From IMG/VR virus record IMGVR_UViG_2675903330_000002: a stretch of DNA of 34,322 nt; one strand, 5' to 3'. The notes beneath the pieces were generated by a model that had not been told where the DNA came from, searched no databases, and saw only the letters and a program-made list of their open reading frames with translations. Positions 478 to 32,816 of the stretch are shown here, piece after piece; the first letter of the stretch is position 1; the number at the start of each line of letters is the position of its first letter. This DNA comes from a virus. Lineage: Duplodnaviria > Heunggongvirae > Uroviricota > Caudoviricetes. The translations under genes and the position numbers were made by a program.

Positions 478-504
478 AAAAAATAAGCCCGTGTAAGGGA
501 GATT
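478..504. repeat. attL core, 27-bp direct repeat AAAAAATAAGCCCGTGTAAGGGAGATT
   Basis: Exact 27-nt copy of the sequence at 32790-32816, and as I recall it this is the P2 att core. Lies immediately outside the 3' end of int. Confidence 0.8.
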
Positions 505-583
505 TAGGGTGTCACCAGTAGGGGCTTTCAACGGTACAATGCGGGTTTGAGCGGCATAAATTACCACTGAAAGCCCTTAAACG

Positions 584-1597
584 TTACTCTACTGTGGACA
601 CTGTGTGGACACTCTCGGCTTCAGTACCACCTCTTAGCGGATTAAGAGAAATGGCGTCCTGAAGGTACTCTGGCGCAAAATGAGCGTAAACCATAGTTTG
701 CTCAATCCGCGTGTGACCTAGTATCCGTTGTAGCGTGATAATACTTCCTCCATTAATCATGAAATGAGTGGCAAAGCTGTGCCTTAGTGCATGTGTGGCT
801 TGCCCCGTTGGCAAATCCGGTTTTATTGCTTTCATTGTTCGTCTGAAGCGAGGGTAATCAGCATCAGGGAATAAAAAACCTCGTTTGTTATCCGCGATCA
901 TTTTGGCAACAGCCTCTGAGATCGGGACGGTGCGTGGTTTGTTTGTTTTCGTTTTAACAAACGTGACGCGGTTATGGATGATATTTTCTGCTTTCAAACG
1001 AGCTGCTTCTCCCCAACGTGCTCCTGTACTCAGGCAAAGAATCGCAATCTTTTTGTTGTCGCCGTCAAGTGCTGCAAGCAGTAAGGCAATTTCTTCCTGT
1101 GTGAGATAGCCTGTTTCTGGTTTTTCCTCCTTAAGCCTCTTTGTCCCTCTGATAGGGTGCTCACCAAAGAATAACTCCGCTTCAATCAGGGCTGTAAACA
1201 TGCCGCTAATACATGTTAAATCACGATTGATACTCGAAGGTTTAATACCCTGACTTCTTCGGGTGGCGCAGTACTGGCTGATAAGGGATTTCGTAATTTG
1301 AAATGCGCATGGGTCATTCGTTATTTTTGTGAAGATTTCAATTTTTCCAAGATTAGATTTCCCATGCTCTTCGTGTTTACCCTTTAAATCCCACCAGATC
1401 TGTGTCAGCTCCGACAGACGCCGCTTGTCTGTTGGTTTTGATAGCCATTCTTTATTGTGGTGGTTGTACAACGTGTATTTCTCGAAAGCGACAGCTTCGC
1501 TTTTCTTATCAAACTTCCTACGGATGCGTTTTCCATTACGTCCAGTAGGGCGGATGTCCACTTCATATCGACCATCATCGAGTTTTTTGATTGCCAT
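584..1597 (-). CDS. int: tyrosine integrase (P2 Int-like), 337 aa
   Basis: 337-aa ORF adjacent to the att core. C-terminal catalytic region shows ...ATHALRHSFATHF...LGHTRIEQTMVYAHF. ATG at 1597 is preceded by GGAGGG. Confidence 0.9.
   Translation of the reverse strand: MAIKKLDDGRYEVDIRPTGRNGKRIRRKFDKKSEAVAFEKYTLYNHHNKEWLSKPTDKRRLSELTQIWWDLKGKHEEHGKSNLGKIEIFTKITNDPCAFQITKSLISQYCATRRSQGIKPSSINRDLTCISGMFTALIEAELFFGEHPIRGTKRLKEEKPETGYLTQEEIALLLAALDGDNKKIAILCLSTGARWGEAARLKAENIIHNRVTFVKTKTNKPRTVPISEAVAKMIADNKRGFLFPDADYPRFRRTMKAIKPDLPTGQATHALRHSFATHFMINGGSIITLQRILGHTRIEQTMVYAHFAPEYLQDAISLNPLRGGTEAESVHTVSTVE
593..611. promoter_or_regulatory. candidate Int arm-type binding sites (TGTGGACA x2, direct, about 11 bp apart)
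   Basis: Tandem TGTGGACA at 593-600 and 604-611 inside the 3' end of int. A matching pair TGTGGTCA/TGTGGACG occurs at 32731-32750 on the other arm. Confidence 0.4.
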
Positions 1598-1712
1598 CAG
1601 AAAACCCTCCGAGTGGTGTGTTTTTTTGCGACTACTAATCGCTTTTTTCGTGGTGGCTGAAATTTAGCCACCAATAGTAGGCACTTGTGATGAATATATT
1701 CACGATGAATTG

Positions 1713-2012
1713 TTAACCAGTCTTTTGACCGGAGTGGGGCGACGTTGTTTCGTTTTGCCCAAAGTGTGCGAGAGCGGGCGCAATTTGCCCGGACTCAGGA
1801 GCGATCTGATTGGTCATGAACCATAAAGTGTATTTGGTGAATTGTGGGGTCTGCAGGATGTTCATCATGACATCTGTTGGAGGTGTTGAACGACCACTTT
1901 CATAGTAACTCAGCGTGCCATACGGAACCCCTGTTAAATCAGCAAGTTGTTGTCTGCTCAAATACTCTGATTTTCGCATTAAGACTATCTTCTCGCTTAT
2001 CGTGTTTGACAT
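1713..2012 (-). CDS. C: immunity repressor C (P2 C-like), 99 aa
   Basis: 99-aa ORF divergent from cox with an HTH-like segment (LSRQQLADLTGVPYGTLSYYESG). Position and size match P2 C. Confidence 0.85.
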   Translation of the reverse strand: MSNTISEKIVLMRKSEYLSRQQLADLTGVPYGTLSYYESGRSTPPTDVMMNILQTPQFTKYTLWFMTNQIAPESGQIAPALAHFGQNETTSPHSGQKTG

Positions 2013-2126
2013 GGTGTTTAGATCTCAATAGTATTTAGTTTAGATATAGATTGTTTAGTGCTTGGATGTGGGCACTAAAAGGCATTATAAGACATTAAAC
2101 GCAATTCATGAGGGCTAGAGGACGAC
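2013..2126. promoter_or_regulatory. C/cox divergent promoter-operator region with direct repeats
   Basis: GTTTAGAT repeated at 2016-2023 and 2038-2045 (22 bp apart), with a further GTTTAG at 2053. P2 C repressor is known to bind direct repeats flanking the early promoter. Confidence 0.45.
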
Positions 2127-2402
2127 ATGAGCAAGCAAGTAACACTCATGACTGATGCGATTCCTTATCAGGAGTTCGCAAAACTAATAGGAAAATCGAC
2201 AGGAGCGGTTCGTCGGATGATCGATAAAGGAAAGCTGCCTGTAATTGATATGACCGATCCACAATCAGCTTCAGGTCGTGCAGGTGAATATTGGGTATAC
2301 CTTCCGGCATGGAATAACGGACTAAAACTGGCTTATGAAAGCCGCCCTAAAGAGATTCGTGACGGCTGGTTGATGTGGTTAGGTCTCGGTGAACCACGTT
2401 AA
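2127..2402 (+). CDS. cox: Cox (excisionase / transcriptional switch), 91 aa
   Basis: 91-aa ORF divergent from C, with AGAGGA upstream of the ATG. Size and position as P2 Cox. Confidence 0.85.
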   Translation: MSKQVTLMTDAIPYQEFAKLIGKSTGAVRRMIDKGKLPVIDMTDPQSASGRAGEYWVYLPAWNNGLKLAYESRPKEIRDGWLMWLGLGEPR

Positions 2403-2412
2403 GGAGAACCGT

Positions 2413-2583
2413 ATGAATGAGCCTCGTTGTATTGCTCAGTTACTGCGTAACGAAAGCCCCAGGGCGATTGACTTCACCATCACCCACGGTAAGGGGCGTA
2501 AGGGAATCATTATCCGCACCAAAAAACAGAGTCCGTTAAAAAAGGCTCTGACCTTTCTGAAAAGCCGGAGGGTATGGAAATGA
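2413..2583 (+). CDS. P2 orf78-like small protein (56 aa)
   Basis: ATG at 2413 preceded by AAGGAG. The six-frame track gives a longer 64-aa ORF from an upstream alternative start. Confidence 0.6.
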   Translation: MNEPRCIAQLLRNESPRAIDFTITHGKGRKGIIIRTKKQSPLKKALTFLKSRRVWK

Positions 2584-3080
2584 CAGTGATGACGCTCAAT
2601 CTCGTTGAAAAACAGCCAGCAGCTATGCGCCGGATAATTGGTAAGCATCTTGCCGTTCCTCGCTGGCAGGATACATGTGATTATTATAATCAGATGATGG
2701 AGCGCGAACGGCTAACAGTTTGCTTTCATGCGCAGTTAAAACAGCGTCACGCAACGATGCGTTTTGAAGAAATGAACGACGTCGAACGTGAACGACTGGT
2801 ATGTGCAATTGATGAATTGCGTGGGGCATTCTCAAAACGCCGTCAGGTTGGCGCAAGTGAGTATGCATATATTAGTTTTTTAACAGTCAGTCAGCGTCGT
2901 ACTTTATTTATGCATGCCGGATTGACTGAAAAAGAATTCAACCAGCCATACTGGCGAATTAATGAAGAGTCATGTTACTGGCGTGATGCTTTATTCCGTG
3001 CATTACGTGAATTATTCAGTCTGTTTGAGTATGCACCGACAATTCTGACGTCGGTAAAACCAGAGCAATATCTGCATTAA
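2580..3080 (+). CDS. B: replication protein B-like (166 aa)
   Basis: ORF in the P2 B position. Start taken as the second ATG (2580) to match the expected size; the ATG at 2574 is also possible. Confidence 0.65.
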   Translation: MTVMTLNLVEKQPAAMRRIIGKHLAVPRWQDTCDYYNQMMERERLTVCFHAQLKQRHATMRFEEMNDVERERLVCAIDELRGAFSKRRQVGASEYAYISFLTVSQRRTLFMHAGLTEKEFNQPYWRINEESCYWRDALFRALRELFSLFEYAPTILTSVKPEQYLH

Positions 3081-3143
3081 GTAATTAACCAGAGTTTTTA
3101 ACGCACTTAATCGTGCGGGGCTTCTTTTTGCCTGGAGAAAGTC

Positions 3144-3368
3144 ATGCATACAGTTTCTGAAAATCAGTGCGGTAAATACGCATTACTGCTGCAACAGGCC
3201 AGAACCGAAGCACAGGCCGACGCTGCGACGCGCTTTTCTTCTCATCTTGACGCCATGATTCGCCACATAACAAAGGCGGAGTTATCCCGCGTGGAGATAG
3301 TCGAGCTGCTCAGTCAGGAGTCGGAAAAATTTCACAATATCGGATTGTCTCGCGGGGAGGTGCTTTGA
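3144..3368 (+). CDS. P2 orf80-like hypothetical protein (74 aa)
   Basis: ATG preceded by GGAGAAAG. Part of a tightly packed early operon. Confidence 0.6.
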
Positions 3369-3667
3369 TGTCCTGTTCTCATTCAGTTGTATTACTGAAT
3401 AACGCCTTAAAAATCGCCGTTATGGAAAATGGTGATTTGTCTCTTATTCAACTTGGTCTTGATAAAGAAAAACGCGACATAACTGAATCTGTTATCGCGA
3501 TTTATCAGAATGAATTAAACCTCCTGTCTGATGTGGTCAATTTACTTGTTAAACGCGCTGTATTCCACAAGCAAATTTCCTCCGTGGATGAACTGACAAA
3601 ATTAACGACAGAACTTGCCAGTTATTGCGCTGATGTATCCAGGAAACTTAACGATAAAAGGAGCTGA
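3368..3667 (+). CDS. P2 orf81-like hypothetical protein (99 aa)
   Basis: ATG at 3368 overlaps the stop of the preceding ORF (TGATG). The track ORF starts at a TTG three bases upstream. Confidence 0.6.
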   Translation: MSCSHSVVLLNNALKIAVMENGDLSLIQLGLDKEKRDITESVIAIYQNELNLLSDVVNLLVKRAVFHKQISSVDELTKLTTELASYCADVSRKLNDKRS

Positions 3668-3669
3668 TA

Positions 3670-3894
3670 ATGCCGGACAACGTAGATTTTATTCAGGAAC
3701 AACAGACTGAATTACTGGAGCGCCAGATTAACGCGGCAAGGGTAAAACATTGCGGTGCTTCTGCGCTGGTTTGCGAAGAGTGTGACGCGCCAATACCTGC
3801 TGCCCGTCGTGCGGCTTATCCGTCAGCCACGCGTTGTGTTTCCTGTCAGTCAGTCTTTGAAGCAAAAAACAAACATTACCGGAGAACGGCATGA
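3670..3894 (+). CDS. TraR/DksA-family C4 zinc-finger protein (P2 orf82-like), 74 aa
   Basis: CxxC...CxxC pattern (CEECDAPIP...RCVSCQ). AAAAGGAG upstream of the ATG. Confidence 0.7.
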   Translation: MPDNVDFIQEQQTELLERQINAARVKHCGASALVCEECDAPIPAARRAAYPSATRCVSCQSVFEAKNKHYRRTA

Positions 3895-4166
3895 GTATTC
3901 GTATTGAAATTGGCGAACGTTATGTCGTTACCAGTGACAGCTTTCAGTTTATTCTCCACGAGAAAAAGAGAGCGGAAAGCGGTAAAAACGCCGGTCAGGA
4001 ATGGCTGTCGGTGGTTGGTTATTACCCGAAATTAAGCCAGCTCGTTTCCGGCCTGATGCATCACGATATTCTGACCGGAAGCGCAAAGTCTTTTGCTGAT
4101 TTAAACGTGCAGGTTGAGCAACTCAGCAAGCGTTGTTCAGAGGCTTTTGGCTCATATGGCCGTTAA
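3891..4166 (+). CDS. P2 orf83-like hypothetical protein (91 aa)
   Basis: ORF with ATG at 3891 overlapping the upstream stop. Its 3' end overlaps the start of A. Confidence 0.55.
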   Translation: MSIRIEIGERYVVTSDSFQFILHEKKRAESGKNAGQEWLSVVGYYPKLSQLVSGLMHHDILTGSAKSFADLNVQVEQLSKRCSEAFGSYGR

Positions 4167-6432
4167 AGCCTCCGGGCGTTTTGTCCCTCCGTCAGCATTT
4201 GCCGCAGGCACCGGTAAGGCGTTTACCGGTGCTTATGCATGGAACGCGCCACGCGAGGCTGTCGGGCGCGAAAGACCCCTTACACGTGACGAGATGCGTC
4301 AGGTGCAAGGTGTTTTATCCACGATTAACCGCCTGCCTTACTTTTTGCGCTCGCTGTTTACTTCACGCTATGACTACATCCGGCGCAATAAAAGCCCGGT
4401 GCACGGGTTTTATTTTCTCACATCCACTTTTCAGCGTCGTTTATGGCCGCGCATTGAGCGTGTGAATCAGCGCCATGAAATGAACACCGACGCGTCGTTG
4501 CTGTTTCTGGCAGAGCGTGACCATTATGCGCGTCTGCCGGGGATGAATGACAAGGAGCTGAAAAAGTTTGCCGCCCGTATCTCATCGCAGCTTTTCATGA
4601 TGTATGAGGAACTCTGCGATGCCTGGGTGGATGCGCATGGCGAAAAAGAATCGCTGTTTACGGATGAGGCGCAGGCTCACCTCTATGGTCATGTTGCTGG
4701 TGCTGCACGTGCTTTCAATATTTCCCCTCTCTACTGGAAAAAATACCGTAAAGGGCAGATGACCACGAGGCAGGCATATTCTGCCATTGCCCGTCTGTTT
4801 AACGATGAGTGGTGGACCCATCAGCTTAAAGGCCAGCGTATGCGCTGGCATGAGGCGTTACTGATTGCTGTCGGGGAGGTCAATAAAGACCGTTCTCCTT
4901 ATGCCAGTAAACATGCCATTCGTGATGTGCGTGCACGCCGCCAGGCAAATCTGGAATTTCTTAAATCGTGTGATCTCGAAAACAGGGAAACCGGCGAGCG
5001 CATCGACCTTATCAGTAAGGTGATGGGCAGTATTTCTAATCCTGAAATTCGCCGGATGGAGCTGATGAACACCATTGCCGGTATTGAGCGTTACGCCGCA
5101 GCAGAGGGTGATGTGGGGATGTTTATCACGCTGACCGCGCCGTCAAAGTATCACCCGACACGTCAGGTCGGAAAAGGCGAAAGTAAAACCGTCCAGCTTA
5201 ATCACGGCTGGAATGATGAGGCATTTAATCCAAAGGATGCGCAGCGATATCTCTGCCGTATCTGGAGCCTGATGCGCACGGCATTCAAGGATAATGATTT
5301 ACAGGTCTACGGTTTGCGTGTCGTCGAGCCACACCACGACGGAACGCCGCACTGGCATATGATGCTTTTTTGTAATCCACGCCAGCGTAACCAGATTATC
5401 GAAATCATGCGTCGCTACGCGCTCAAAGAGGATGGAGACGAAAGAGGAGCTGCGCGAAACCGTTTTCAGGCAATACACCTTAACCGGGGCGGTGCTGCGG
5501 GATATATCGCGAAATACATTTCAAAAAACATCGACGGCTATGCACTGGATGGTCAGCTCGATAACGATACCGGCAGGCCGCTGAAAGACACTGCCGCGGC
5601 TGTTACCGCATGGGCGTCAACGTGGCGCATTCCGCAATTTAAAACGGTTGGCCTGCCGACAATGGGGGCTTACCGTGAACTACGCAAATTGCCTCGCGGC
5701 GTCAGCATTGCTGATGAGTTTGACGAACGCGTCGAGGCTGCACGCGCTGCCGCAGACAGTGGCGATTTTGCGCTGTATATCAGCGCGCAGGGTGGGGCAA
5801 ATGTCCCGCGCGATTGTCAGACTGTCAGGGTCGCCCGTAGCCCGTCGGATGACGTTAACGAGTACGAGGAAGAGGTCGAGAGAGTGGTCGGCATTTACGC
5901 GCCGCATCTCGGCGCGCGTCATATTCATATCACCAGAACGACGGACTGGCGCATTGTGCCGAAAGTTCCGGTCGTTCAGCCTTTGACTTTAAAAAGCGGC
6001 ATCGCCGCGCCTCGGAGTCCTGTCAATAACTGTGGAAAGCTCACCGGTGGTGATACTTCGTTACCGGCTCCCACACCTTCTGAGCACGCCGCAGCAGTGC
6101 TTAATCTGGTAGATGACGGTGTTATCGAATGGAATGACCAGGAGGTCGTGAGGGCGCTCAGAGGTGCATTAAAACACGGTCTGAGAAGACCAAACCGTCA
6201 GCAAAGAAACGGAAGCCCGTTAAAACCGCATGAAATAGCGCCATCGGCCAGACTGACCCGGTCGGAACGAATGCAAATTACCCGTATCCGCGTTGACCTT
6301 GCTCAGAACGGTATCAGGCCACAGCGATGGGAGCTTGAGGCGCTGGCGCGTGGCGCGACCGTAAATTATGACGGGGAAAAATTCACGTATCCGGTCGCTG
6401 ATGAGTGGCCGGGATTCTCAACAAACATATAA
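4156..6432 (+). CDS. A: replication initiation endonuclease A (rolling-circle, HUH-type)
   Basis: About 758-aa ORF in the P2 gpA position, with an H-x-H metal-binding motif (HWHMMLF) and nearby Tyr residues. The track ORF starts at a TTG at 4114; the first ATG is at 4156. Confidence 0.85.
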   Translation: MAVKASGRFVPPSAFAAGTGKAFTGAYAWNAPREAVGRERPLTRDEMRQVQGVLSTINRLPYFLRSLFTSRYDYIRRNKSPVHGFYFLTSTFQRRLWPRIERVNQRHEMNTDASLLFLAERDHYARLPGMNDKELKKFAARISSQLFMMYEELCDAWVDAHGEKESLFTDEAQAHLYGHVAGAARAFNISPLYWKKYRKGQMTTRQAYSAIARLFNDEWWTHQLKGQRMRWHEALLIAVGEVNKDRSPYASKHAIRDVRARRQANLEFLKSCDLENRETGERIDLISKVMGSISNPEIRRMELMNTIAGIERYAAAEGDVGMFITLTAPSKYHPTRQVGKGESKTVQLNHGWNDEAFNPKDAQRYLCRIWSLMRTAFKDNDLQVYGLRVVEPHHDGTPHWHMMLFCNPRQRNQIIEIMRRYALKEDGDERGAARNRFQAIHLNRGGAAGYIAKYISKNIDGYALDGQLDNDTGRPLKDTAAAVTAWASTWRIPQFKTVGLPTMGAYRELRKLPRGVSIADEFDERVEAARAAADSGDFALYISAQGGANVPRDCQTVRVARSPSDDVNEYEEEVERVVGIYAPHLGARHIHITRTTDWRIVPKVPVVQPLTLKSGIAAPRSPVNNCGKLTGGDTSLPAPTPSEHAAAVLNLVDDGVIEWNDQEVVRALRGALKHGLRRPNRQQRNGSPLKPHEIAPSARLTRSERMQITRIRVDLAQNGIRPQRWELEALARGATVNYDGEKFTYPVADEWPGFSTNI

Positions 6433-6535
6433 AAATGATTGAAATGGTTGATTTTGCTTCCACTTGATGGTTGGTATCAGCAACTGATGGATCATGCGGA
6501 ACTGCGTGGCGATCTTGCTTTGGAAGCATGTCATT

Positions 6536-6754
6536 ATGACTAATGCATACATTACTAGCTATGCGTCCGGTTCCGCCATTGTACTCGTGCAAGAGTCTGC
6601 GGCTGATGGCTATTGTTTACAAATTATGGTCAAAGAGAATCTGACCCTCTACGAGTTGGTCGGAGGGACTGAGATCGTCAGTGATAACTGCAGCCGTATG
6701 GGAGAAATCAATAATCCCAACCGTCCATATTTCTACCTTCACGCGTGCCCATAA
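6536..6754 (+). CDS. hypothetical small protein (orphan ORF between A and the RT gene)
   Basis: ORF only, with no clear Shine-Dalgarno sequence. It occupies the region where P2 has orf91. May be non-coding. Confidence 0.2.
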   Translation: MTNAYITSYASGSAIVLVQESAADGYCLQIMVKENLTLYELVGGTEIVSDNCSRMGEINNPNRPYFYLHACP

Positions 6755-6919: not shown

Positions 6920-8464
6920 TTAAGCGCTGTGTTCCTTGTCGAATAAGTTCACTTCTTCTGGTGTAATATCATTATCCATTTCTTCGAATGCATCTAAATC
7001 CACAATTTTTGTTTTTTTCAAAATTGATAGTATTTTCTGTTTGTTTTTACTTTTGGCTGAGCCCGGAATCCACTCTACATCCCACAGGCCATCAATGGTA
7101 AATGTTTTTTTTCCCTTGAGTTCATCATTTATGCGTTGACATAGGGCTGTTTTGTAATCGCCTTCCCATTGTGTGTGTATCTTCCCTTGAACTCGTTGAA
7201 ACCAAATATCTAACATTTCAGTATTTGGTTGTTTACCTAGTTTACAATGAAGTTGTTGTAACTTGCCAAATTTGAGTTCATCGTCGTCATAAAGGAAGGT
7301 CAAGAGTTTTGCGAAAATAGCCATTCCCACTGGGTAGGTGGTTGGGTTTTTAGCCATGATGCTTGAAATAATTCCAAGCATTGCATCTAGTTGATGCCCA
7401 CTATTTGTGATCTTTTTCTTCCTAAATAATTTTCGCAAGAAATCATTTAAATATCTAACTGTAATTTTGGAGTTTTGATGTTTTAAAGAAAATAAATATA
7501 TTGCATACAACATTTTCTGTAGGGAGTTGAACGACCTTTCTATAATATATTCTTTTTTTGCTGATTTAAGGGAGTGAAGAATGATGTCGTCATGTAGTTC
7601 TGTTTTTCTTGAGTTTAAATCAAGCCCAAACTCACCTAAGACCTCAACCAAACACTTTGAGATTTTGTCCAAATCATCTTTACTGCTTGAAAATATTCGA
7701 TAATCATCTCTGTAGCGAACTACTTTGTAATCCGTTATTTTTTGCTCTTCAGTTTTTTTTCTTAGCTGTAAATCAATTTCGCCTAAAATTAATTCGGCAA
7801 ATGTATCCATCAACGTACTACCCAATGGTATTCCGTTTGTCTGATTACTCATCATCATCTGGATATGAGTGTCAATCAATCGTCCTGGGTTATTGTTATT
7901 TTCTTTCTTTTTGGCCTCTTCTTTTGAGATGAATACCCATTCAAAGCTATGAGTGTAAATAGAAGGGTAGAAGTTTGAAATATCTGTGCTGAACATGAAC
8001 TCATACTCAAGAGCCAATGAAAGACTTTTTTGTTCAAAATCTTCCCACCAGTTTAAAACAGATGCAGCTACGTTTGAGGTGTTCTTTTTGCTCACTGGGG
8101 TACTTGAGCATAAAAAAAGATCATTAGACTCAAACTCTCTAAATTTATTCTTTATAGCCTTCCAGTTGGAAGGGGATGTAATAAGTTTACAAAAATACAC
8201 GTAGTACAGAGGATTAATTAGTGTTATTCGTCGCCAGCTATATAAGCCATCTTTGCTGACTAAAACCTCGTAATTTATATTCTTCCCCATCAATGACTTG
8301 GAGTCAGGTTGGAAGTTGATTTTACCTTCATCTATCGCGGAGTTGATTTCTTCAAGCAAGGAAGAAAAATCGACATAACTGGGTAGCTCCAGAGTAGTGT
8401 ATGAATCATGCTGCAGAAAATACTTAAGCGCTCTACCAGTAGTTAATTCATAAATCTTTTTCAT
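6920..8464 (-). CDS. Abi-type reverse transcriptase (AbiA/AbiK/Abi-P2-like), 515 aa, in the P2 tin/old slot
   Basis: RT palm motifs readable in the translation: RRITLINP (motif 1), FSTDISNFYPSIY (motif A), NGIPLGSTLMDTFAEL (motif B), VRYRDDYRIF (YxDD, motif C), GLDLNSRKTEL (motif D/E). An extra C-terminal domain of about 175 aa follows. Start taken at MKKIYEL (8464); the track's longer form starts at 8590. The gene is AT-rich relative to the phage backbone. Confidence 0.75.
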   Translation of the reverse strand: MKKIYELTTGRALKYFLQHDSYTTLELPSYVDFSSLLEEINSAIDEGKINFQPDSKSLMGKNINYEVLVSKDGLYSWRRITLINPLYYVYFCKLITSPSNWKAIKNKFREFESNDLFLCSSTPVSKKNTSNVAASVLNWWEDFEQKSLSLALEYEFMFSTDISNFYPSIYTHSFEWVFISKEEAKKKENNNNPGRLIDTHIQMMMSNQTNGIPLGSTLMDTFAELILGEIDLQLRKKTEEQKITDYKVVRYRDDYRIFSSSKDDLDKISKCLVEVLGEFGLDLNSRKTELHDDIILHSLKSAKKEYIIERSFNSLQKMLYAIYLFSLKHQNSKITVRYLNDFLRKLFRKKKITNSGHQLDAMLGIISSIMAKNPTTYPVGMAIFAKLLTFLYDDDELKFGKLQQLHCKLGKQPNTEMLDIWFQRVQGKIHTQWEGDYKTALCQRINDELKGKKTFTIDGLWDVEWIPGSAKSKNKQKILSILKKTKIVDLDAFEEMDNDITPEEVNLFDKEHSA

Positions 8465-8670: not shown

Positions 8671-8689
8671 GGCGAGGCGGGGGAAGCAC
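8671..8689. other. cos site (19-nt cohesive-end sequence GGCGAGGCGGGGGAAGCAC)
   Basis: Matches the P2/186 cohesive-end sequence as I recall it, with at most one difference. Lies between the A-side genes and Q as in P2, within a GC-rich dyad region. Confidence 0.7.
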
Positions 8690-21163: not shown

Positions 21164-21167
21164 AACC

Positions 21168-24342: not shown

Positions 24343-24907
24343 CATCCGGCGCGGTGCTGGTATCTGTTACCGTCACCGCGTCAATGTAATCCAGCACGGC
24401 GTTAAGTCGGGTTGTTTCTGCCTGCGTCAGCTTCCGTCCGGCCTGTAATTTCAGTTGAATCAGACTGATGGAAGCCATTGCAGCATCAATCAGCGACTGG
24501 CGCTGTGCTTCTGCTGCGTCTACTGCGGCACTATGCTGTGCCTCAGTATCTGTCACCCATTTCTCACCATCCCATTTATCGTATGGCGTTAACGGTGAAA
24601 GCGTGACATAACCGTCTTTGATGGCACCGATATAATCCACTGTAACAGCTGCGCCATTTTCGATTGAGTAAACAGTCTCATTGCGGTGGTCTTCTTCATG
24701 GCTCCATCCCTTACCCGTAAATACTGCCACTTTCCCCGGAATGTATTCGCCCGGGTCAATACCAGTGGAACAGGCGGGCATACTTACGCCAGTATTAATA
24801 TATTCATCAGACCAGCCCGTATACTCAGATGTTTCAGCATCATAATAAAAACAACGCATATCGCCCGGCACTGTAGCCAGCCCATTTTCATCAAAAACAG
24901 GTTTCAT
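24314..24907 (-). CDS. alternative tail fibre assembly protein (U'-like), OFF orientation, 197 aa
   Basis: Convergent with and overlapping the previous gene at 24314-24342. C-terminal motif ...TDTSTAPDVIWPELP. Confidence 0.7.
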   Translation of the reverse strand: MKPVFDENGLATVPGDMRCFYYDAETSEYTGWSDEYINTGVSMPACSTGIDPGEYIPGKVAVFTGKGWSHEEDHRNETVYSIENGAAVTVDYIGAIKDGYVTLSPLTPYDKWDGEKWVTDTEAQHSAAVDAAEAQRQSLIDAAMASISLIQLKLQAGRKLTQAETTRLNAVLDYIDAVTVTDTSTAPDVIWPELPEA

Positions 24908-25404
24908 TATTTAGCCCTCACCAGAAAGTTAAATGCAATATTTCGCGGTCTGACAGCAACAAAATTCACACCATCACCCACAGAGTTACTGGTGAAATTA
25001 AATCGTGAAAATCCTGGCTGATTTCCGGCGATGCCATCATGAAAGTTAATTGCGTGTCCCGCACCTTCGCCTATATTCCCGGCAAACTGAGAAAAGTTTG
25101 TAGCTGCCTGCCAGCTTAATAATTCGCGACCACCGTCTGCACCTCGCCCGTCATCCCAGATACGAATGAAATCACCGCGGGCTTCAGGTAATACCAGCGA
25201 AGGAAATACTTTCGCCAGCACAGGATAATCAGTGGCAGAGAATTTCGCGCCGCTGAACTTCAAAAACACCATACTGGACCAGCTGTCGATTACAGTATTT
25301 GGCATTGCAGCGGACGGCCAGAAGAACGGAACGCCAATAGCTGGAGCACCTTCTCCCAAACCAACGTTTATGAAAATGCAGAGATAATGGCTAACTGGCA
25401 TCAT
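24907..25404 (-). CDS. alternative tail-fibre C-terminal cassette (H'v), promoterless in this orientation
   Basis: The ORF's 5' end runs through the right crossover site and encodes ...NVGLGEGAP, matching the LGLGE junction in H. It has no independent start context. A functional product is expected only after inversion. Confidence 0.6.
   Translation of the reverse strand: MMPVSHYLCIFINVGLGEGAPAIGVPFFWPSAAMPNTVIDSWSSMVFLKFSGAKFSATDYPVLAKVFPSLVLPEARGDFIRIWDDGRGADGGRELLSWQAATNFSQFAGNIGEGAGHAINFHDGIAGNQPGFSRFNFTSNSVGDGVNFVAVRPRNIAFNFLVRAK
25351..25376. repeat. right crossover site for DNA invertase (hix/gix-like, 26 bp)
   Basis: TTCTCCCAAACC-AA-CGTTTATGAAAA lies immediately upstream of the invertase gene and resembles Hin/Gin/Cin crossover sites. 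Confidence 0.75.
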
Positions 25405-25431
25405 CCCCGGTTTTTATTCAGGGGGTTGATC

Positions 25432-26025
25432 ATGCTTATTGGCTATGTACGCGTGTCAACAAATGACCAGAACACCGATTTGCAACGTAGTGCGCTGAAC
25501 TGCGCGGGATGTGAGCGGATTTTTGAGGATAAAATCAGCGGCACTAAGTCCGACAGACCGGGGCTGAAAAAACTGCTCAGGACACTATCGGCAGGAGACA
25601 CGCTGGTAGTCTGGAAGCTGGACAGGCTGGGGCGTAGTATGCGGCATCTGGTCATTCTGGTTGAGGAGCTGCGCGAACGCGGCGTTAATTTTCGCAGCCT
25701 GACAGATGCTATTGATACCAGCACGCCGATGGGGCGTTTTTTCTTTCATGTGATGGGTGCCCTGGCTGAAATGGAGCGAGAACTCATTGTCGAGCGGACA
25801 CGCGCCGGACTGGAAGCGGCCAGAGCCAAAGGGCGTATTGGTGGCAGACGTCCGAAGCTCACCGCGAGTGAGTGGGAACAGGCAGGACGGTTGCTGGCTG
25901 CGGGTGAATCACGTCAACGCGTGGCGCTGATTTTTGATATTGGCCTGTCCACGCTCTATAAAAAATTCCCCTCATCAGCGGCAAAGAATAAATTGTGTCA
26001 TCCCTTAGCCAACCGGGACAAATAG
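25432..26025 (+). CDS. serine recombinase, Gin/Hin/Cin/Pin-family DNA invertase (about 197 aa)
   Basis: N-terminus MLIGYVRVSTNDQNTDLQR contains the catalytic Ser of the resolvase/invertase fold. C-terminal HTH ...GESRQRVALIFDIGLSTLYKKFP. ATG at 25432 preceded by AGGGGG. Occupies the slot where P2 has Z/fun. Confidence 0.9.
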   Translation: MLIGYVRVSTNDQNTDLQRSALNCAGCERIFEDKISGTKSDRPGLKKLLRTLSAGDTLVVWKLDRLGRSMRHLVILVEELRERGVNFRSLTDAIDTSTPMGRFFFHVMGALAEMERELIVERTRAGLEAARAKGRIGGRRPKLTASEWEQAGRLLAAGESRQRVALIFDIGLSTLYKKFPSSAAKNKLCHPLANRDK

Positions 26026-26084: not shown

Positions 26085-27275
26085 ATGAGTGACTATCATC
26101 ACGGCGTGCAGGTGCTGGAGATTAACGACGGCACCCGCGTCATTTCCACCGTATCCACCGCCATTGTTGGCATGGTCTGCACGGCCAGCGATGCGGATGC
26201 GGAAACCTTCCCCGTCAATAAACCGGTGCTGATCACCAATGTGCAGAGCGCGATTGCAAAGGCCGGTAAAAAAGGCACGCTGGCGGCATCGTTGCAGGCC
26301 ATCGCTGACCAGTCAAAACCGGTCACCGTTGTCGTGCGCGTGGAAGACGGAACCGGCGACGACGAAGAAACGAAACTCGCGCAGACCGTTTCCAATATCA
26401 TCGGCACCACTGACGAAAACGGTCAGTACACCGGACTGAAAGCCCTGCTGGCGGCGGAGTCGGTAACCGGTGTTAAACCGCGTATTCTTGGTGTGCCGGG
26501 ACTGGACACCAAAGAGGTGGCGGTTGCACTGGCATCCGTCTGTCAGAAGCTGCGCGCTTTCGGGTATATCAGCGCATGGGGCTGTAAAACCATTTCCGAG
26601 GTGAAAGCCTACCGCCAGAATTTCAGCCAGCGTGAGCTGATGGTCATCTGGCCGGATTTCCTCGCATGGGATACGGTCACCAGTACCACCGCCACCGCGT
26701 ATGCCACCGCCCGTGCGCTGGGTCTGCGTGCCAAAATCGACCAGGAGCAGGGCTGGCATAAAACGCTGTCCAACGTCGGGGTGAACGGTGTTACCGGCAT
26801 CAGCGCATCTGTATTCTGGGATTTGCAGGAGTCCGGCACCGATGCTGACCTGCTTAACGAGTCAGGCGTCACAACGCTGATTCGCCGTGACGGTTTCCGC
26901 TTCTGGGGTAACCGTACCTGCTCTGATGACCCGCTGTTCCTCTTTGAAAACTACACCCGCACCGCGCAGGTGCTGGCCGACACGATGGCTGAGGCGCATA
27001 TGTGGGCGGTGGACAAGCCTATCACCGCAACGCTGATTCGCGACATCGTTGACGGCATCAATGCCAAATTCCGTGAGCTGAAAACAAACGGCTATATCGT
27101 GGATGCGACCTGCTGGTTCAGCGAAGAATCCAACGATGCGGAAACCCTTAAGGCCGGAAAACTGTATATCGACTACGACTATACCCCGGTGCCTCCTCTT
27201 GAAAACCTGACCCTGCGCCAGCGTATTACCGATAAATACCTGGCAAATCTGGTCACCTCGGTTAACAGCAATTAA
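26085..27275 (+). CDS. FI: tail sheath protein (FI-like), 396 aa
   Basis: Synteny and size. Confidence 0.85.
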   Translation: MSDYHHGVQVLEINDGTRVISTVSTAIVGMVCTASDADAETFPVNKPVLITNVQSAIAKAGKKGTLAASLQAIADQSKPVTVVVRVEDGTGDDEETKLAQTVSNIIGTTDENGQYTGLKALLAAESVTGVKPRILGVPGLDTKEVAVALASVCQKLRAFGYISAWGCKTISEVKAYRQNFSQRELMVIWPDFLAWDTVTSTTATAYATARALGLRAKIDQEQGWHKTLSNVGVNGVTGISASVFWDLQESGTDADLLNESGVTTLIRRDGFRFWGNRTCSDDPLFLFENYTRTAQVLADTMAEAHMWAVDKPITATLIRDIVDGINAKFRELKTNGYIVDATCWFSEESNDAETLKAGKLYIDYDYTPVPPLENLTLRQRITDKYLANLVTSVNSN

Positions 27276-27287
27276 GGAGCCTGACCG

Positions 27288-27806
27288 ATGGCAATGCCGC
27301 GCAAACTCAAGTTAATGAACGTCTTTCTGAACGGCTACAGCTATCAGGGCGTTGCAAAGTCCGTCACGCTGCCAAAACTGACCCGTAAGCTCGAAAACTA
27401 TCGCGGTGCGGGGATGAACGGCAGCGCACCGGTAGACCTCGGCCTTGATGACGATGCGCTGTCAATGGAGTGGTCGCTCGGGGGCTTCCCGGATTCGGTT
27501 ATCTGGGAGCTTTACGCCGCAACCGGCGTGGATGCCGTGCCGATTCGTTTTGCAGGCTCTTACCAGCGCGACGATACCGGCGAAACGGTGGCCGTCGAAG
27601 TGGTCATGCGTGGACGTCAGAAAGAAATCGACACCGGCGAGGGTAAACAGGGAGAAGACACCGAGTCGAAAATCTCCGTGGTCTGCACCTATTTCCGGCT
27701 GACGATAGACGGTAAGGAGCTGGTCGAAATCGACACCATCAACATGATTGAGAAGGTGAACGGCGTCGACCGGCTGGAGCAACACCGCCGCAATATCGGC
27801 CTGTGA
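27288..27806 (+). CDS. FII: tail tube protein (FII-like), 172 aa
   Basis: Synteny and size. Confidence 0.85.
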   Translation: MAMPRKLKLMNVFLNGYSYQGVAKSVTLPKLTRKLENYRGAGMNGSAPVDLGLDDDALSMEWSLGGFPDSVIWELYAATGVDAVPIRFAGSYQRDDTGETVAVEVVMRGRQKEIDTGEGKQGEDTESKISVVCTYFRLTIDGKELVEIDTINMIEKVNGVDRLEQHRRNIGL

Positions 27807-27862
27807 TTTTCATCCGGTCAGCCTGGCTGACCGGTTAACCCCGATTCAGAAGTGAGAAAACC

Positions 27863-28138
27863 ATGAACAAAGAAAACGTCATTACCCTGGACAATCCGGT
27901 CAAACGTGGTGAGCAGGTTATCGAACAGGTCACGCTGATGAAACCCAATGCCGGGACGCTGCGCGGTGTCAGTCTGGCTGCAGTCGCGAACTCCGAAGTC
28001 GATGCACTGATTAAAGTGCTGCCGCGCATGACGGCACCGATGCTGACCGAGCAGGAAGTCGCCGCGCTGGAACTGCCTGACCTTGTGGCGCTGGCCGGTA
28101 AGGTGGTCGGTTTTTTGTCGCCGAACTCGGTGCAGTGA
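27863..28138 (+). CDS. E: tail assembly chaperone E, 91 aa
   Basis: Small ORF between FII and T that ends just after a T-run slippery sequence. Confidence 0.8.
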   Translation: MNKENVITLDNPVKRGEQVIEQVTLMKPNAGTLRGVSLAAVANSEVDALIKVLPRMTAPMLTEQEVAALELPDLVALAGKVVGFLSPNSVQ

Positions 28139-28290
28139 CGTTTCCGAAAAATCTCTCGGTCGATGACCTGATGGCGGATGTGGCAGTGATATTTCACTGG
28201 CCGCCATCAGAACTGTATCCCATGAGCCTGACCGAACTCATCACATGGCGCGAAAAGGCGCTCCGGCGAAGCGGAAACACGAATGAGTAA
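27863..28290 (+). CDS. E+E' tail assembly chaperone made by -1 programmed ribosomal frameshift (about 141 aa)
   Basis: Slippery sequence G-GTT-TTT-TG at 28109-28117. The -1 frame is open from 28117 to a TAA at 28288-28290 (57 sense codons), which overlaps the start of T. Same architecture as P2 E/E+E'. Confidence 0.65.
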
Positions 28291-30730
28291 CAATGTAAAA
28301 TTACAGGTATTGCTCAGGGCTGTTGACCAGGCATCCCGCCCGTTTAAATCCATCCGCACAGCGAGCAAATCGCTGTCGGGGGATATCCGGGAAACACAAA
28401 AATCACTGCGCGAGCTGAACGGTCAGGCATCCCGTATTGAGGGATTTCGCAATACCAGTGCACAGCTCGCCGTGACTGGTCATGCACTTGAAAAGGCTCG
28501 GCAGGAAGCCGAAGCCCTTGCCACACAGTTTAAAAACACCGAACGTCCGACCCGTGCTCAGGCGAAAGTGCTGGAATCAGCAAAGCGAGCGGCGGAGGAC
28601 TTACAGGCGAAATATAACCGCCTGACGGATTCCGTTAAACGCCAGCAGCGGGAACTGGCCGCTGTGGGAATTAATACCCGCAATCTTGCACATGATGAGC
28701 AGGGGCTGAAAAACCGTATCAGTGAAACCACTGCCCAGCTTAACCGGCAGCGTGACGCGCTGGCGCGTGTCAGTGCGCAACAGGCAAAACTTAACGCAGT
28801 CAAACAGCGTTATCAGGCCGGCAAGGAACTGGCCGGAAATATGGCCTCAGTGGGCGCTGCCGGTGTGGGGATTGCGGCGGCGGGAACGATGGCCGGAGTT
28901 AAGCTGCTGATACCCGGTTATGAGTTTGCGCAGAAAAACTCAGAATTACAGGCTGTGCTCGGAGTGGCAAAAGACTCCGCCGAAATGGCCGCGCTCCGCA
29001 AACAGGCGCGCCAGCTCGGCGACAACACCGCCGCCTCGGCGGATGATGCAGCCGGTGCGCAGATTATCATTGCAAAAGCCGGTGGGGATGTTGATGCCAT
29101 TCAGGCGGCAACGCCGGTCACGCTGAATATGGCGCTGGCGAACCGTCGCACGATGGAGGAAAACGCCGCCCTGTTGATGGGGATGAAATCCGCCTTTCAG
29201 CTTTCAAACGATAAGGTCGCTCATATCGGGGATGTTCTCTCCATGACGATGAACAAAACCGCCGCCGATTTTGACGGCATGAGCGATGCGCTGACCTATG
29301 CCGCACCTGTGGCAAAAAATGCCGGTGTCAGCATTGAAGAAACCGCCGCAATGGTCGGGGCACTGCATGATGCAAAAATTACCGGTTCAATGGCGGGGAC
29401 GGGAAGCCGTGCCGTGTTAAGCCGCCTGCAGGCACCGACGGGAAAAGCATGGGATGCACTCAAAGAGCTTGGAGTGAAAACCTCAGACAGCAAAGGAAAC
29501 ACCCGGCCAATATTTACCATTCTGAAAGAAATGCAGGCCAGTTTTGAGAAAAACCGGCTCGGTACTGCCCAGCAGGCTGAATACATGAAAACTATTTTCG
29601 GGGAGGAGGCCAGCTCAGCCGCCGCCGTGCTGATGACTGCCGCCTCAACCGGAAAGCTGGACAAACTGACCGCTGCGTTTAAAGCCTCAGACGGGAAGAC
29701 CGCCGAGCTGGTAAATATCATGCAGGATAACCTCGGCGGTGACTTTAAGGAGTTTCAGTCCGCTTATGAGGCGGTGGGGACAGACCTGTTTGACCAGCAG
29801 GAAGGCGCACTGCGTAAGCTCACTCAGACGGCCACAAAGTATGTGTTAAAACTCGACGGCTGGATCCAGAAAAACAAATCACTGGCGTCAACCATCGGCC
29901 TCATTGTCGGTGGCGCGCTGGCGCTTATTGGCATCATCGGTGCAATTGGTCTTGTAGCCTGGCCGGTTATCACCGGCATCAATGCCATCATCGCGGCAGC
30001 AGGCGCAATGGGGGCAGTCTTCACGACGGTTGGCAGTGCTGTTATGACCGCCATCGGGGCTATTAGCTGGCCGGTTGTGGCCGTGGTGGCCGCAATTGTC
30101 GCCGGGGCGTTGCTTATCCGTAAATACTGGGAGCCTGTCAGCGCATTCTTTGGCGGTGTGGTTGAAGGGCTGAAAGTGGCATTTGCGCCGGTGGGGGAAC
30201 TGTTCACGCCACTTAAGCCGGTGTTTGACTGGCTGGGTGAAAAGTTACAGGCCGCGTGGCAGTGGTTTAAAAACCTGATTGCCCCGGTTAAAGCCACACA
30301 GGACACCCTGAACCGTTGCCGTGACACGGGGGTCATGTTCGGGCAGGCACTGGCTGACGCGCTGATGCTGCCGCTTAATACGTTCAACAAACTGCGCAGC
30401 GGTATTGACTGGGTACTGGAAAAACTCGGTGTTATCAACAAAGAGTCAGACACACTTGACCAGACCGCTGCCAGAACTCATGCCGCCACGTATGGCACCG
30501 GTGGTTATATTCCGGCGACCAGCTCTTATGCAGGTTATCAGGCTTATCAGCCGGTTACGGCACCGGCTGGCCGCTCTTATGTAGACCAGAGTAAAAACGA
30601 ATATCACATCAGCCTGACGGGTGGTACTGCGCCGGGGACACAGCTTGACCGCCAGTTACAGGATGCGCTCGAAAAATACGAGCGGGATAAACGTGCGCGC
30701 GCCCGTGCCAGCATGATGCATGACGGTTAA
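28283..30730 (+). CDS. T: tail tape-measure protein (T-like), 815 aa
   Basis: Large Ala/Gly-rich protein with an internal hydrophobic segment, downstream of the E/E' chaperones. Size as P2 T. Confidence 0.9.
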   Translation: MSNNVKLQVLLRAVDQASRPFKSIRTASKSLSGDIRETQKSLRELNGQASRIEGFRNTSAQLAVTGHALEKARQEAEALATQFKNTERPTRAQAKVLESAKRAAEDLQAKYNRLTDSVKRQQRELAAVGINTRNLAHDEQGLKNRISETTAQLNRQRDALARVSAQQAKLNAVKQRYQAGKELAGNMASVGAAGVGIAAAGTMAGVKLLIPGYEFAQKNSELQAVLGVAKDSAEMAALRKQARQLGDNTAASADDAAGAQIIIAKAGGDVDAIQAATPVTLNMALANRRTMEENAALLMGMKSAFQLSNDKVAHIGDVLSMTMNKTAADFDGMSDALTYAAPVAKNAGVSIEETAAMVGALHDAKITGSMAGTGSRAVLSRLQAPTGKAWDALKELGVKTSDSKGNTRPIFTILKEMQASFEKNRLGTAQQAEYMKTIFGEEASSAAAVLMTAASTGKLDKLTAAFKASDGKTAELVNIMQDNLGGDFKEFQSAYEAVGTDLFDQQEGALRKLTQTATKYVLKLDGWIQKNKSLASTIGLIVGGALALIGIIGAIGLVAWPVITGINAIIAAAGAMGAVFTTVGSAVMTAIGAISWPVVAVVAAIVAGALLIRKYWEPVSAFFGGVVEGLKVAFAPVGELFTPLKPVFDWLGEKLQAAWQWFKNLIAPVKATQDTLNRCRDTGVMFGQALADALMLPLNTFNKLRSGIDWVLEKLGVINKESDTLDQTAARTHAATYGTGGYIPATSSYAGYQAYQPVTAPAGRSYVDQSKNEYHISLTGGTAPGTQLDRQLQDALEKYERDKRARARASMMHDG

Positions 30731-30744
30731 GGAGGTGACGAAAA

Positions 30745-31224
30745 ATGATGCTCGCGTTAGGTATGTTTGTTTTTATGCGCCAGACGCTGCCACACCAGAC
30801 CATGCAGCGTGAATCAGATTATCGCTGGCCGTCAAATTCCCGTATCGGTAAACGGGATGCCTACCAGTTTCTCGGTGTTGGCGAGGAAAACATGACGCTT
30901 GCCGGTGTGCTTTATCCCGAACTGACCGGCGGCAAGCTGACGATGACCACGCTCAGGATGATGGCTGAGGAAGGCCGGGCGTGGCCGTTGCTGGATGGCA
31001 CCGGCATGATTTACGGCATGTATGTCATCAGCAGGGTGAGTGAAACAGGGAGTATTTTCTTTGCAGACGGCACACCCCGGAAAATTGATTTTACGCTGTC
31101 GCTCACCCGCGTTGATGAATCACTGGCCGCGCTTTATGGCGATATCGGTAAACAGGCGGAATCGCTCATCGGTAAGGCTGGCAGTATGGCGACCAGATTC
31201 ACGGGTATGATGGGGGCGGGATAA
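30745..31224 (+). CDS. U: tail protein U-like, 159 aa
   Basis: Synteny and size. Confidence 0.8.
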   Translation: MMLALGMFVFMRQTLPHQTMQRESDYRWPSNSRIGKRDAYQFLGVGEENMTLAGVLYPELTGGKLTMTTLRMMAEEGRAWPLLDGTGMIYGMYVISRVSETGSIFFADGTPRKIDFTLSLTRVDESLAALYGDIGKQAESLIGKAGSMATRFTGMMGAG

Positions 31225-32387
31225 TGCTGGATGCGCTGACATTTGATGCAGGCAGTACGCTGACGCCGGATTACATGCTGATGCTCGACAGCAGGGATAT
31301 TACCGGCAATATCAGCGACCGTCTGATGAGCATGACCCTGACAGATAACCGGGGCTTTGAGGCTGACCAGCTTGATATTGAACTGAACGATGCCGACGGG
31401 CAGGTCGGGCTGCCGGTTCGTGGCGCTGTCCTGACGGTGTATATCGGCTGGAAAGGTTTTGCCCTGGTATGCAAAGGGAAATTTACCGTTGATGAGGTTG
31501 AACACCGGGGCGCACCGGATGTGGTCACCATCCGCGCCCGGAGTGCAGATTTTCGCGGGACGCTCAATTCCCGCCGGGAAGGCTCCTGGCATGACACCAC
31601 GCTCGGTGCGATTGTTGAGGCGATAGCCACCCGTAACAGGCTGGAAGCCAGTGTCGCTCCGTCACTGGCCGGAATTAAAATCCCGCACATCGACCAGTCG
31701 CAGGAGTCCGATGTGAAATTCCTGACCCGTCTTGCTGAACGCAACGGCGGCGAGGTGTCGGTAAAAATGGGAAAACTGTTGTTTCTCAAAGCGGGGCAGG
31801 GGGTGACGGCCAGCGGTAAAAAAATCCCGCAGGTCACCATAACCCGCAGCGACGGCGACCGCCATCATTTTGCGATTGCTGACCGTGGAGCCTATACCGG
31901 CGTAACGGCAAAGTGGTTACACACCAAAGACCCGAAACCACAAAAGCAGAAGGTAAAACTGAAACGCAAAAAGAAAGAAAAACACCTGCGCGCACTGGAG
32001 CACCCGAAAGCAAAACCGGTCACGCAGAAGAAAGCGCCAAAAGTACCGGAAGCGCGCGAAGGTGAATACATGGCCGGTGAGGCTGACAACGTTTTTGCCC
32101 TGACCACGGTATATGCCACGAAAGCGCAGGCCATGCGCGCCGCTCAGGCGAAGTGGGATAAACTGCAACGGGGGGTGGCGGAGTTCTCCATCAGCCTGGC
32201 TACCGGTCGGGCTGATATTTACACGGAAACGCCGGTCAGAGTGTCAGGCTTTAAGCGCGTCATAGACGAGCAGGACTGGACAATCACTAAGGTGACACAT
32301 TTTCTGAATAATAGCGGCTTCACGACGTCCTTAGAGCTTGAGGTCAGGCTTTCTGATGTGGAGTACGAAACAGAAGATTATGAGTGA
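31224..32387 (+). CDS. D: tail protein D / late control protein D, 387 aa
   Basis: Synteny and size. ATGA overlap with U. Confidence 0.85.
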   Translation: MLDALTFDAGSTLTPDYMLMLDSRDITGNISDRLMSMTLTDNRGFEADQLDIELNDADGQVGLPVRGAVLTVYIGWKGFALVCKGKFTVDEVEHRGAPDVVTIRARSADFRGTLNSRREGSWHDTTLGAIVEAIATRNRLEASVAPSLAGIKIPHIDQSQESDVKFLTRLAERNGGEVSVKMGKLLFLKAGQGVTASGKKIPQVTITRSDGDRHHFAIADRGAYTGVTAKWLHTKDPKPQKQKVKLKRKKKEKHLRALEHPKAKPVTQKKAPKVPEAREGEYMAGEADNVFALTTVYATKAQAMRAAQAKWDKLQRGVAEFSISLATGRADIYTETPVRVSGFKRVIDEQDWTITKVTHFLNNSGFTTSLELEVRLSDVEYETEDYE

Positions 32388-32468
32388 TGTCTTTTGTTTA
32401 TCTGTTTGTTTTATAAGGATAAATTAACTAAAATGGCACTATCAACAAAACCGGAAGAGGTGCTCGCG

Positions 32469-32687
32469 ATGTTTCATTGTCCTTTATGCCAGCATGCCGC
32501 ACATGCGCGTACAAGCCGCTATATCACTGACACGACAAAAGAGCGTTATCACCAGTGCCAGAACGTGAATTGCAGCGCCACGTTCATCACTTATGAGTCG
32601 GTACAGCGATACATCGTGAAGCCGGGAGAAGTCCACGCCGTGAGGCCGCACCCGTTGCCGTCAGGGCAGCAAATTATGTGGATGTAA
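32469..32687 (+). CDS. ogr: Ogr late-gene transcription activator (C4 zinc finger), 72 aa
   Basis: MFHCPLCQHAAHARTSRYITDTTKERYHQCQNVNCSATF... carries CxxC-N22-CxxxxC. ATG preceded by GAGGTG. Last gene before attR, as in P2. Confidence 0.9.
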   Translation: MFHCPLCQHAAHARTSRYITDTTKERYHQCQNVNCSATFITYESVQRYIVKPGEVHAVRPHPLPSGQQIMWM

Positions 32688-32697
32688 TTACAAACAG

Positions 32698-32726
32698 AAA
32701 GCCCCTCAGTCGAGGGGCTTTTTTTG
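32698..32726 (+). terminator. rho-independent terminator after ogr
   Basis: 10-bp stem AAAGCCCCTC/GAGGGGCTTT with a 4-nt loop, followed by a T5 run. Confidence 0.85.
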
Positions 32727-32730
32727 TCGA

Positions 32731-32750
32731 TGTGGTCAATGTGTGGACGT
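32731..32750. promoter_or_regulatory. candidate Int arm-type sites on the right arm (TGTGGTCA ... TGTGGACG)
   Basis: Direct repeats 12 bp apart, resembling the TGTGGACA pair at 593-611. Confidence 0.4.
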
Positions 32751-32789
32751 GACCAGAAATAAATCCTTTTATTTCAATTTGTTGTACGT

Positions 32790-32816
32790 AAAAAATAAGC
32801 CCGTGTAAGGGAGATT
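32790..32816. repeat. attR core, 27-bp direct repeat AAAAAATAAGCCCGTGTAAGGGAGATT
   Basis: Identical to 478-504. Confidence 0.8.

Follow-up and report, generated by a model that had tools for sequence, protein, structure and literature searches.

A P2-type prophage at the 3' end of the cyaR gene of Escherichia coli, with a possible relic of an earlier occupant

What separates yegR from yegQ in a stretch of Escherichia coli DNA that begins and ends in these two genes, and where exactly does the intervening element begin and end? The stretch examined here, IMG/VR virus record IMGVR_UViG_2675903330_000002, is 34,322 nucleotides long and is bounded exactly by two start codons, that of yegR at the left end and that of yegQ (also named trhP) at the right; we call it the window, and all coordinates are positions in it unless stated otherwise. 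A sequence-only reading had proposed that the window holds a prophage bounded by a 27-bp direct repeat, integrated beside yegQ, and that it appears to be intact at a site where E. coli K-12 has no more than a P2 remnant. We compared the window with phage P2, with empty and occupied sites in other genomes and with the K-12 locus. We are close to certain that the element is a P2-type temperate phage (Peduovirus) of 32.3 kb and that P2 Int inserted it into the 3' end of cyaR, between yegR and yegQ/trhP. This site is locI, well known as the one that P2 prefers in E. coli. Both the kind of element and the site are already known.

The ends of the element are set by the repeat, AAAAAATAAGCCCGTGTAAGGGAGATT, found at 478-504 and 32790-32816 in copies that are 100% identical. 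It is the sole perfect direct repeat of at least 18 nt reported in the window, and the chance expectation for perfect 27-nt repeats in 34 kb is about 3e-8. Identity stops precisely at each edge of the two copies and extends on neither side; being limited to 27 bp, the repeat does not form part of a larger duplicated block. The int open reading frame (ORF) begins 80 bp inside the left copy and ogr stops 102 bp short of the right copy. The boundaries, with int and ogr just inside them, are therefore as the sequence-only reading gave them (Table 1).

Is the repeat an attachment core? It is identical at 27 of 27 positions to the attP core of P2 (P2 24356-24382), and the sequence inside each copy is P2 attP arm sequence. 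In an alignment of the window with P2 attP and the empty site of the genome BY63, attL consists of the BY63 host left arm, the core and the P2 P' arm; attR, in the same alignment, consists of the P2 P arm (with one mismatch), the core and the BY63 host right arm. The arms of attP are divided between the ends: the P' arm, with the Cox region and two copies of TGTGGACA, lies at attL, and the P arm, with the ogr terminator, the Int arm site and the site for integration host factor (IHF), lies at attR. Exact TGTGGACA occurs only these two times in the window; the arm consensus published for P2-type integrases is tgTGGaCa (PMC3448106). Each junction is thus an exact hybrid of P2 attP and the empty E. 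coli site, B-O-P' at the left and P-O-B' at the right, the pattern expected from Int-mediated recombination of P2 attP with an attB. The earlier proposal that the repeat is an att core is supported by both the core and its arms.

If the element was inserted in this way, the two host flanks should be continuous in genomes that lack it. Aligning them with a prophage-free genome, as the sequence-only reading had suggested, showed that they are: BY63 carries the reconstructed empty site in one piece, at 100% identity. We then counted junctions in 5,426 complete E. coli genomes, with the criterion that at least 80% of the query lie in one place. The flanks are adjacent in 4,565 of them. The yegR-core-int junction is contiguous in 805 (about 15%), and the D/ogr-core-cyaR-yegQ junction is found in 920, a count that includes K-12-type remnants. 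Occupation of the cyaR site by P2-type elements is common, and the element described here is one of hundreds of like occupants at a known integration hot spot. A match to window 1-25000, with the same locus and cargo, occurs in 37 of the genomes, at 98-98.8% identity.

Two further observations concern the host DNA at this site. Window 1-495 is 100% identical to K-12. On the right, host flank and K-12-type genomes agree at every position for the first 390 bp or so, and the 22 mismatches to K-12 all fall deeper in yegQ; the hot spot seems to be surrounded by a recombination mosaic. Empty sites of the type found in 042, NC101 and SF-166 carry an AT-rich stretch of about 170 bp, extra or replaced, at 117-286 of the 042 locus sequence (the equivalent point here is just after window 318), and yegR is 324 nt long there and 318 nt here. 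We considered this stretch as a phage relic and rejected it: its place is directly behind the stop codon of yegR, well away from the core, and it has no similarity to the P2 arms.

Into what did the phage integrate? The sequence-only reading placed the integration beside yegQ. The locus is correct, but the target is better named the 3' end of the small RNA (sRNA) gene cyaR, which that reading had overlooked and which is the true target. In the K-12 locus sequence the core occupies 2675-2701 and cyaR is annotated at 2615-2701, so that the core coincides exactly with the gene's final 27 nt. In the window, CyaR matches Rfam RF00112 with 100.7 bits (gathering score 47) over model positions 1-85 of 85, at 32793-32878 on the minus strand. 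The cyaR region is identical to K-12, 32817-33209 is 100% identical to K-12-type genomes, and the order trhP-cyaR is as in K-12. Of the cyaR terminator, the core takes in the loop, the 3' half of the stem and the U-tract; the stem, 11 bp long, is present in the minimum free energy fold of the RNA. Because the phage core copies loop, 3' stem half and U-tract, cyaR remains complete at attR and is intact in lysogens. CyaR is a CRP-dependent regulator of ompX and other targets. The copy of the core at attL is without the 5' half of the stem. Together with its phage-side context it folds no better than shuffled sequences (z = 0.02), and on this test we rejected the idea that it serves as a second functional terminator or sRNA end. 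We found no evidence that contradicts integration at the cyaR site.

These features suggest a simple course of events. Int, assisted by IHF, would have catalysed site-specific recombination between attP and attB at locI, with strand exchange inside the 27-bp identity splitting attP. The P' arm, bearing the Cox boxes, both TGTGGACA Int arm sites and int, would pass to attL; the P arm, bearing the ogr terminator, the Int arm site and the IHF site, would pass to attR. Such an exchange would leave cyaR complete at attR and a promoterless 27-bp copy of the core at attL. The significance of the result beyond correct annotation is limited, although it fixes the exact ends of the prophage, and the precise attL, attR and attB sequences can be used for prophage curing or for typing by polymerase chain reaction.

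The host DNA to the left of the core raises a question of its own. Just left of each core copy lies an imperfect repeat of 40 nt (425-464 and 32722-32761, 75% identity). Within it, the exact 15-mer TCGATGTGGTCAATG occurs in the window only at 430-444 and 32727-32741, where none is expected by chance, and 13 of 21 further columns then match. In its right-hand copy the 15-mer opens the Int P-arm site as annotated in P2. Local alignment of the left arms scores 38 against a shuffle maximum of 28 (0 of 2000 shuffles reach the observed score); local alignment of the right arms, B' with P', gave no similarity. The host copy lies 15 bp closer to the core than the phage arm does, and the intervening 33 and 48 nt do not align. 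A hairpin at about 383-413 precedes it, in the place where the phage has the ogr terminator. The empty sites of BY63 and 042 contain the same host copy. An exact-pattern scan for arm repeat, gap and core returned only six stretches, all from Escherichia or Shigella, and confirmed the spacing of the host copy in both.

Why should host DNA resemble a phage arm? The simplest explanation is that the DNA downstream of cyaR is an attR scar left by a P2-like prophage of much greater age, in which case the site would have been occupied at least three times: by the source of the ancient relic, by that of a K-12-type remnant and by the present prophage. We offer this tentatively, judging the odds to be slightly short of even. 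It is also possible that the similarity arose in the other direction, by capture of host sequence by the phage. Were the scar real, its retained first arm repeat might still bind the N-domain of Int and bias site choice or directionality at locI, and the possible fossil arm site could serve the study of how integration hot spots are reused. It is the sole mildly novel thread in this analysis.

The more recent trace at this locus is the remnant in K-12. In MG1655 the order is trhP, cyaR, the cryptic prophage PR-X (ogrK and yegZ, a fragment of D) and yegR; the annotation of PR-X bears out the earlier statement that K-12 holds only ogrK and a D fragment here. Both this remnant and the identity of 27 bp at the preferred site were reportedly established by Barreiro and Haggard-Ljungquist in 1992. 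The attR of K-12 is complete, and 629 bp are kept in total. The left core is cut after 18 nt (AAAAAATAAGCCCGTGTA, equivalent to window 478-495) and fused directly to the last 213 bp or so of D (K-12 locus 3300-3330). A truncated left core joined to the 3' part of D implies one deletion, from the interior of attL to the interior of D, that removed int through most of D; we saw no obvious microhomology at the deletion joint.

How closely does the prophage itself follow P2? We judged completeness by comparing ORF lengths one by one with the P2 annotation and by pairwise protein comparisons, that is, at the level of sequence. Int is identical to P2 Int at 336 of 337 residues, the single change being M264T, and C (99/99), Cox (91/91) and Ogr (72/72) are identical throughout; the recombination and immunity module is essentially P2's own. 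ORF order matches P2 gene for gene. Exact P2 length is kept by int, C, cox, orf80-83, N, M, Y, K, lysA, lysB, lysC, R, S, V, W, J, FI, FII, E, T, U, D and ogr, and B, A, P, O, L and X differ solely in the mechanical extent of the ORF upstream of P2's start codon. Variant alleles relative to P2 are found at Q, I, H and G: Q is identical at 326 of 339 residues (96%) and diverges over its last 20 or so, and I is a longer variant (203 residues, 176 in P2; Pfam Tail_P2_I). The full P2 set of structural, lysis and replication genes is present, together with cos, and the ORF comparison with P2 found no truncated or frameshifted essential gene. The P2 genes old, tin, orf91, orf30 and Z/fun are absent; all are marked non-essential in the P2 record. 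In the place of orf91, between A and the AbiP2 gene described below, lies an ORF of 86 aa (6494-6754) with no Pfam or PADLOC match; phage pro147 has an annotated hypothetical gene of 219 nt there.

The cargo of the element surrounds cos, which sits between two reverse transcriptase (RT) defence systems, AbiP2 on one side and a retron on the other. Similarity to P2 stops 9 bp past cos, and the retron occupies the space between cos and Q. Its effector is annotated 'retron Ec48 family effector' in pro147 and in strain 23CRST029. A non-coding gap of 241 bp (8690-8930) separates cos from the retron RT ORF; a search of 8560-9000 for the retron msr RNA gave no Rfam match at E<=1. The retron effector and Q converge on a gap of 42 bp that holds a GC-rich hairpin, GTTGGCGGGATTGCATTCCGCCAAC, at 10914-10938; the hairpin is likely a bidirectional terminator replacing P2's tQ. 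Cargo of this kind, AbiP2 and an Ec48-type retron, is relevant to the phage-resistance phenotypes of the host strain.

A second departure from P2 lies in the tail-fibre region. Inverted repeats, one inside H and the other just upstream of a serine invertase gene, enclose a segment with two opposed sets of fibre tip and chaperone genes, including two Caudo_TAP genes (Pfam) on opposite strands. In the near-identical and otherwise collinear prophage of strain 23CRST029, at the same locus, the segment is reversed (the counterpart of window 23491-26025, segment and invertase gene together, is 33991-36429 of that locus sequence). Two orientations among near-identical prophages imply a working invertase and recent activity, and this is how a host-range switch of the Gin/Cin/Pin type behaves. 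Window 23518-24147 is without a counterpart in the 23CRST029 prophage.

Could the repeat and the locus be explained in another way? The repeat might be no att site at all but have arisen when a longer piece of host DNA was duplicated, or when terminator-like sequences underwent homologous recombination, and the imperfect 40-nt similarity to the left of both cores is what such an origin might leave. Yet identity ends exactly at both edges of the 27 bp; what lies inside the two copies is P2 attP arm sequence with annotated Int, IHF and Cox sites; and the imperfect similarity already exists in empty sites, is offset by 15 bp and has no equivalent in the right-hand arms, which share nothing. With spacers that do not align, these points led us to reject a larger duplicated block, and we give this explanation almost no weight. 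A different objection accepts integration but not its date. The prophage might be the undecayed version of the very integration that later eroded in K-12: locus, orientation and attR are the same, and D and ogr lie beside attR in both. The degree of divergence speaks against it. The phage part of the K-12 remnant is 95.45% identical to the prophage over 615 bp (27 mismatches and one gap), whereas the adjoining host DNA matches K-12 at 100% over the 495 bp to the left and at 98.56% to the right; the remnant therefore stems from a related phage that integrated separately. Sites with and without an occupant are, moreover, scattered across E. coli, which fits repeated independent integrations. A single shared event is in our estimation improbable, and the remnant is best read as the relic of a distinct P2-like phage and an older event. 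The earlier claim that K-12 has a remnant at the same place therefore stands, with the refinement that this remnant is not a decayed form of the present element; the intactness of the latter is judged from gene content and length.

Granting integration by Int at cyaR as described, is the prophage still alive? We think that it may be viable and excisable through Int and Cox. Several observations weigh on the other side: the M264T change in Int, the final 20 or so residues of Q, which are unlike those of P2, the end of P2 similarity 9 bp past cos with a retron in the space beyond, and the fact that the best match to the attL junction among the complete genomes is 99.5%, none reaching 100%. The element could accordingly be cryptic, complete in appearance but incapable of excision, packaging or plaque formation; the replaced sequence on the Q side of cos and the H, G and I alleles, which differ from P2's, might be counted in favour of this as well. 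Against it, no essential gene is truncated or frameshifted, lengths being equal to P2's or explained by the choice of start codon or by variant alleles, and near-identical prophages carry the fibre segment in one orientation or the other. In pro147, a phage that was obtained by induction (PMC5285337), cos, retron and Q follow each other in the same way, so the layout is compatible with a live phage. We regard a defective prophage as unlikely, though a good deal less so than either alternative above. The sequence-only reading had suggested looking for the excised circle after mitomycin C induction. P2 carrying this C repressor is not known to be SOS-inducible, and mitomycin C is for that reason ill-suited.

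Table 1. Features of the window and the corresponding attP sites of the P2 record
Feature	Position	Strand	Basis or remark
yegR, host left flank	1-318	+	annotated yegR in K-12, BY63 and 042
Candidate decayed copy of Int P-arm site in host B arm (possible relic)	430-465	+	28/36 columns match 32727-32762
attL core, 27 bp	478-504		identical to P2 attP core
Cox-binding region of attP, P' side	521-594	+	placed by identity to P2 24399-24472, offset 23878
int, P2 tyrosine integrase	584-1597	-	336/337 aa
Int P'-arm sites	592-618	+	two TGTGGACA at 593-600 and 604-611; P2 annotation 24470-24496
C, immunity repressor	1713-2012	-	99/99
cox, excisionase/repressor	2127-2402	+	91/91
Early/replication genes orf78, B, orf80-83, A	2389-6432	+	ORF order and lengths as P2 annotation; ~97% DNA identity to P2
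AbiP2-type RT, replacing tin/old	6920-8590	-	PADLOC AbiP2 4.7e-160; Pfam RVT_1
cos, 19-nt cohesive end	8671-8689	+	GGCGAGGCGGGGGAAGCAC, 1 mismatch to P2 cohesive end
Type IV (Ec48-type) retron	8931-10909	+	RT ORF 8931-10205, PADLOC RT_IV 1.4e-176; 2TM effector 10202-10909, 2TM_IV 4.1e-85
Q (portal) and P (large terminase)	10952-13773	-	ORF lengths as in P2 and pro147
Late genes O N M L X Y K lysA lysB lysC R S V W J I	13851-22680	+	ORF lengths compared with P2
H tail fibre, short variant	22677-23894	+	Pfam Phage_tail_fib, Gp53-like_C; C-terminal part within invertible segment
Invertible tail-fibre segment	23491-25376		27-nt inverted repeats at 23491-23517 and 25350-25376
Serine DNA invertase, at P2 Z/fun position	25387-26025	+	Pfam Resolvase 3.1e-52, HTH_7
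Tail genes FI FII E E' T U D	26085-32387	+	ORF lengths equal P2: 396, 172, 91, 815, 159, 387 aa
ogr, late activator	32469-32687	+	72/72 identical to P2 Ogr
Int P-arm site of attP	32727-32754	+	identical to P2 protein_bind feature 24293-24320
IHF site of attP	32758-32791	+	placed by homology to P2 24324-24357, 1 mismatch
attR core, 27 bp	32790-32816		final 27 nt of cyaR
cyaR (RyeE), sRNA gene, intact	32790-32876	-	Rfam match at 32793-32878
yegQ/trhP, host right flank	32961-34322	-	453-aa ORF, annotated yegQ/trhP in matching genomes
P2 record: Int P arm of attP	P2 24293-24320
P2 record: IHF site of attP	P2 24324-24357
P2 record: attP core	P2 24356-24383
P2 record: Cox sites of attP	P2 24399-24472
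P2 record: Int P' arm of attP	P2 24470-24496

How does this prophage compare with the elements already known? With P2 it shares the core, near-identical attP arms, Int (336/337), C, Cox and Ogr (100%), about 97% DNA identity over the common genes, gene order and, with one mismatch, cos. It differs in that old, tin, orf91, orf30 and Z/fun are replaced by AbiP2, the Ec48-type retron and the invertase with its invertible fibre segment, and in that H, G and I are other alleles. With PR-X of K-12 it shares the locus, the orientation, the complete attR core in cyaR and the order D, ogr, P arm. Escherichia phage pro147 (Peduovirus pro147) matches window 2413-22505 in one piece at 98.2%, a span that includes the AbiP2-type RT, cos, the retron, Q, P and the late genes. 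The two part company in the integrase and immunity region, where the match starts only after cox, and in the tail-fibre and Z region, where pro147 is without an invertase.

Other phages have been placed at the same address. Table 2 of Archer et al. 2011 (PMC3032704) gives 'cyaR RNA' as the insertion site of Wphi2 (P2) in E. coli W, of 'ogr-D'' in K-12 and of P2*B in E. coli B; by that listing, Wphi2 and P2*B are P2-type prophages at the cyaR site, like the one described here. The same paper puts the retron Ec86 in another prophage of E. coli B, at rybB and not at cyaR. The site is also documented by the title of Barreiro & Haggard-Ljungquist 1992, as that title is cited in PMC3091744. P2-type integrases have been described as mostly integrating 'between other genes' (PMC3448106). 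The arrangement at cyaR is familiar from phages and islands that target the 3' ends of tRNA, tmRNA and sRNA genes, such as 186 in tRNA-Ile and Fels-2/SopE-phi in ssrA (PMC3448106): in these too the att core copies the 3' end of a gene for a small stable RNA, and the gene survives. Compared with targets of the tRNA type, what the core copies here is the terminator of an Hfq-dependent sRNA rather than a tRNA-like structure.

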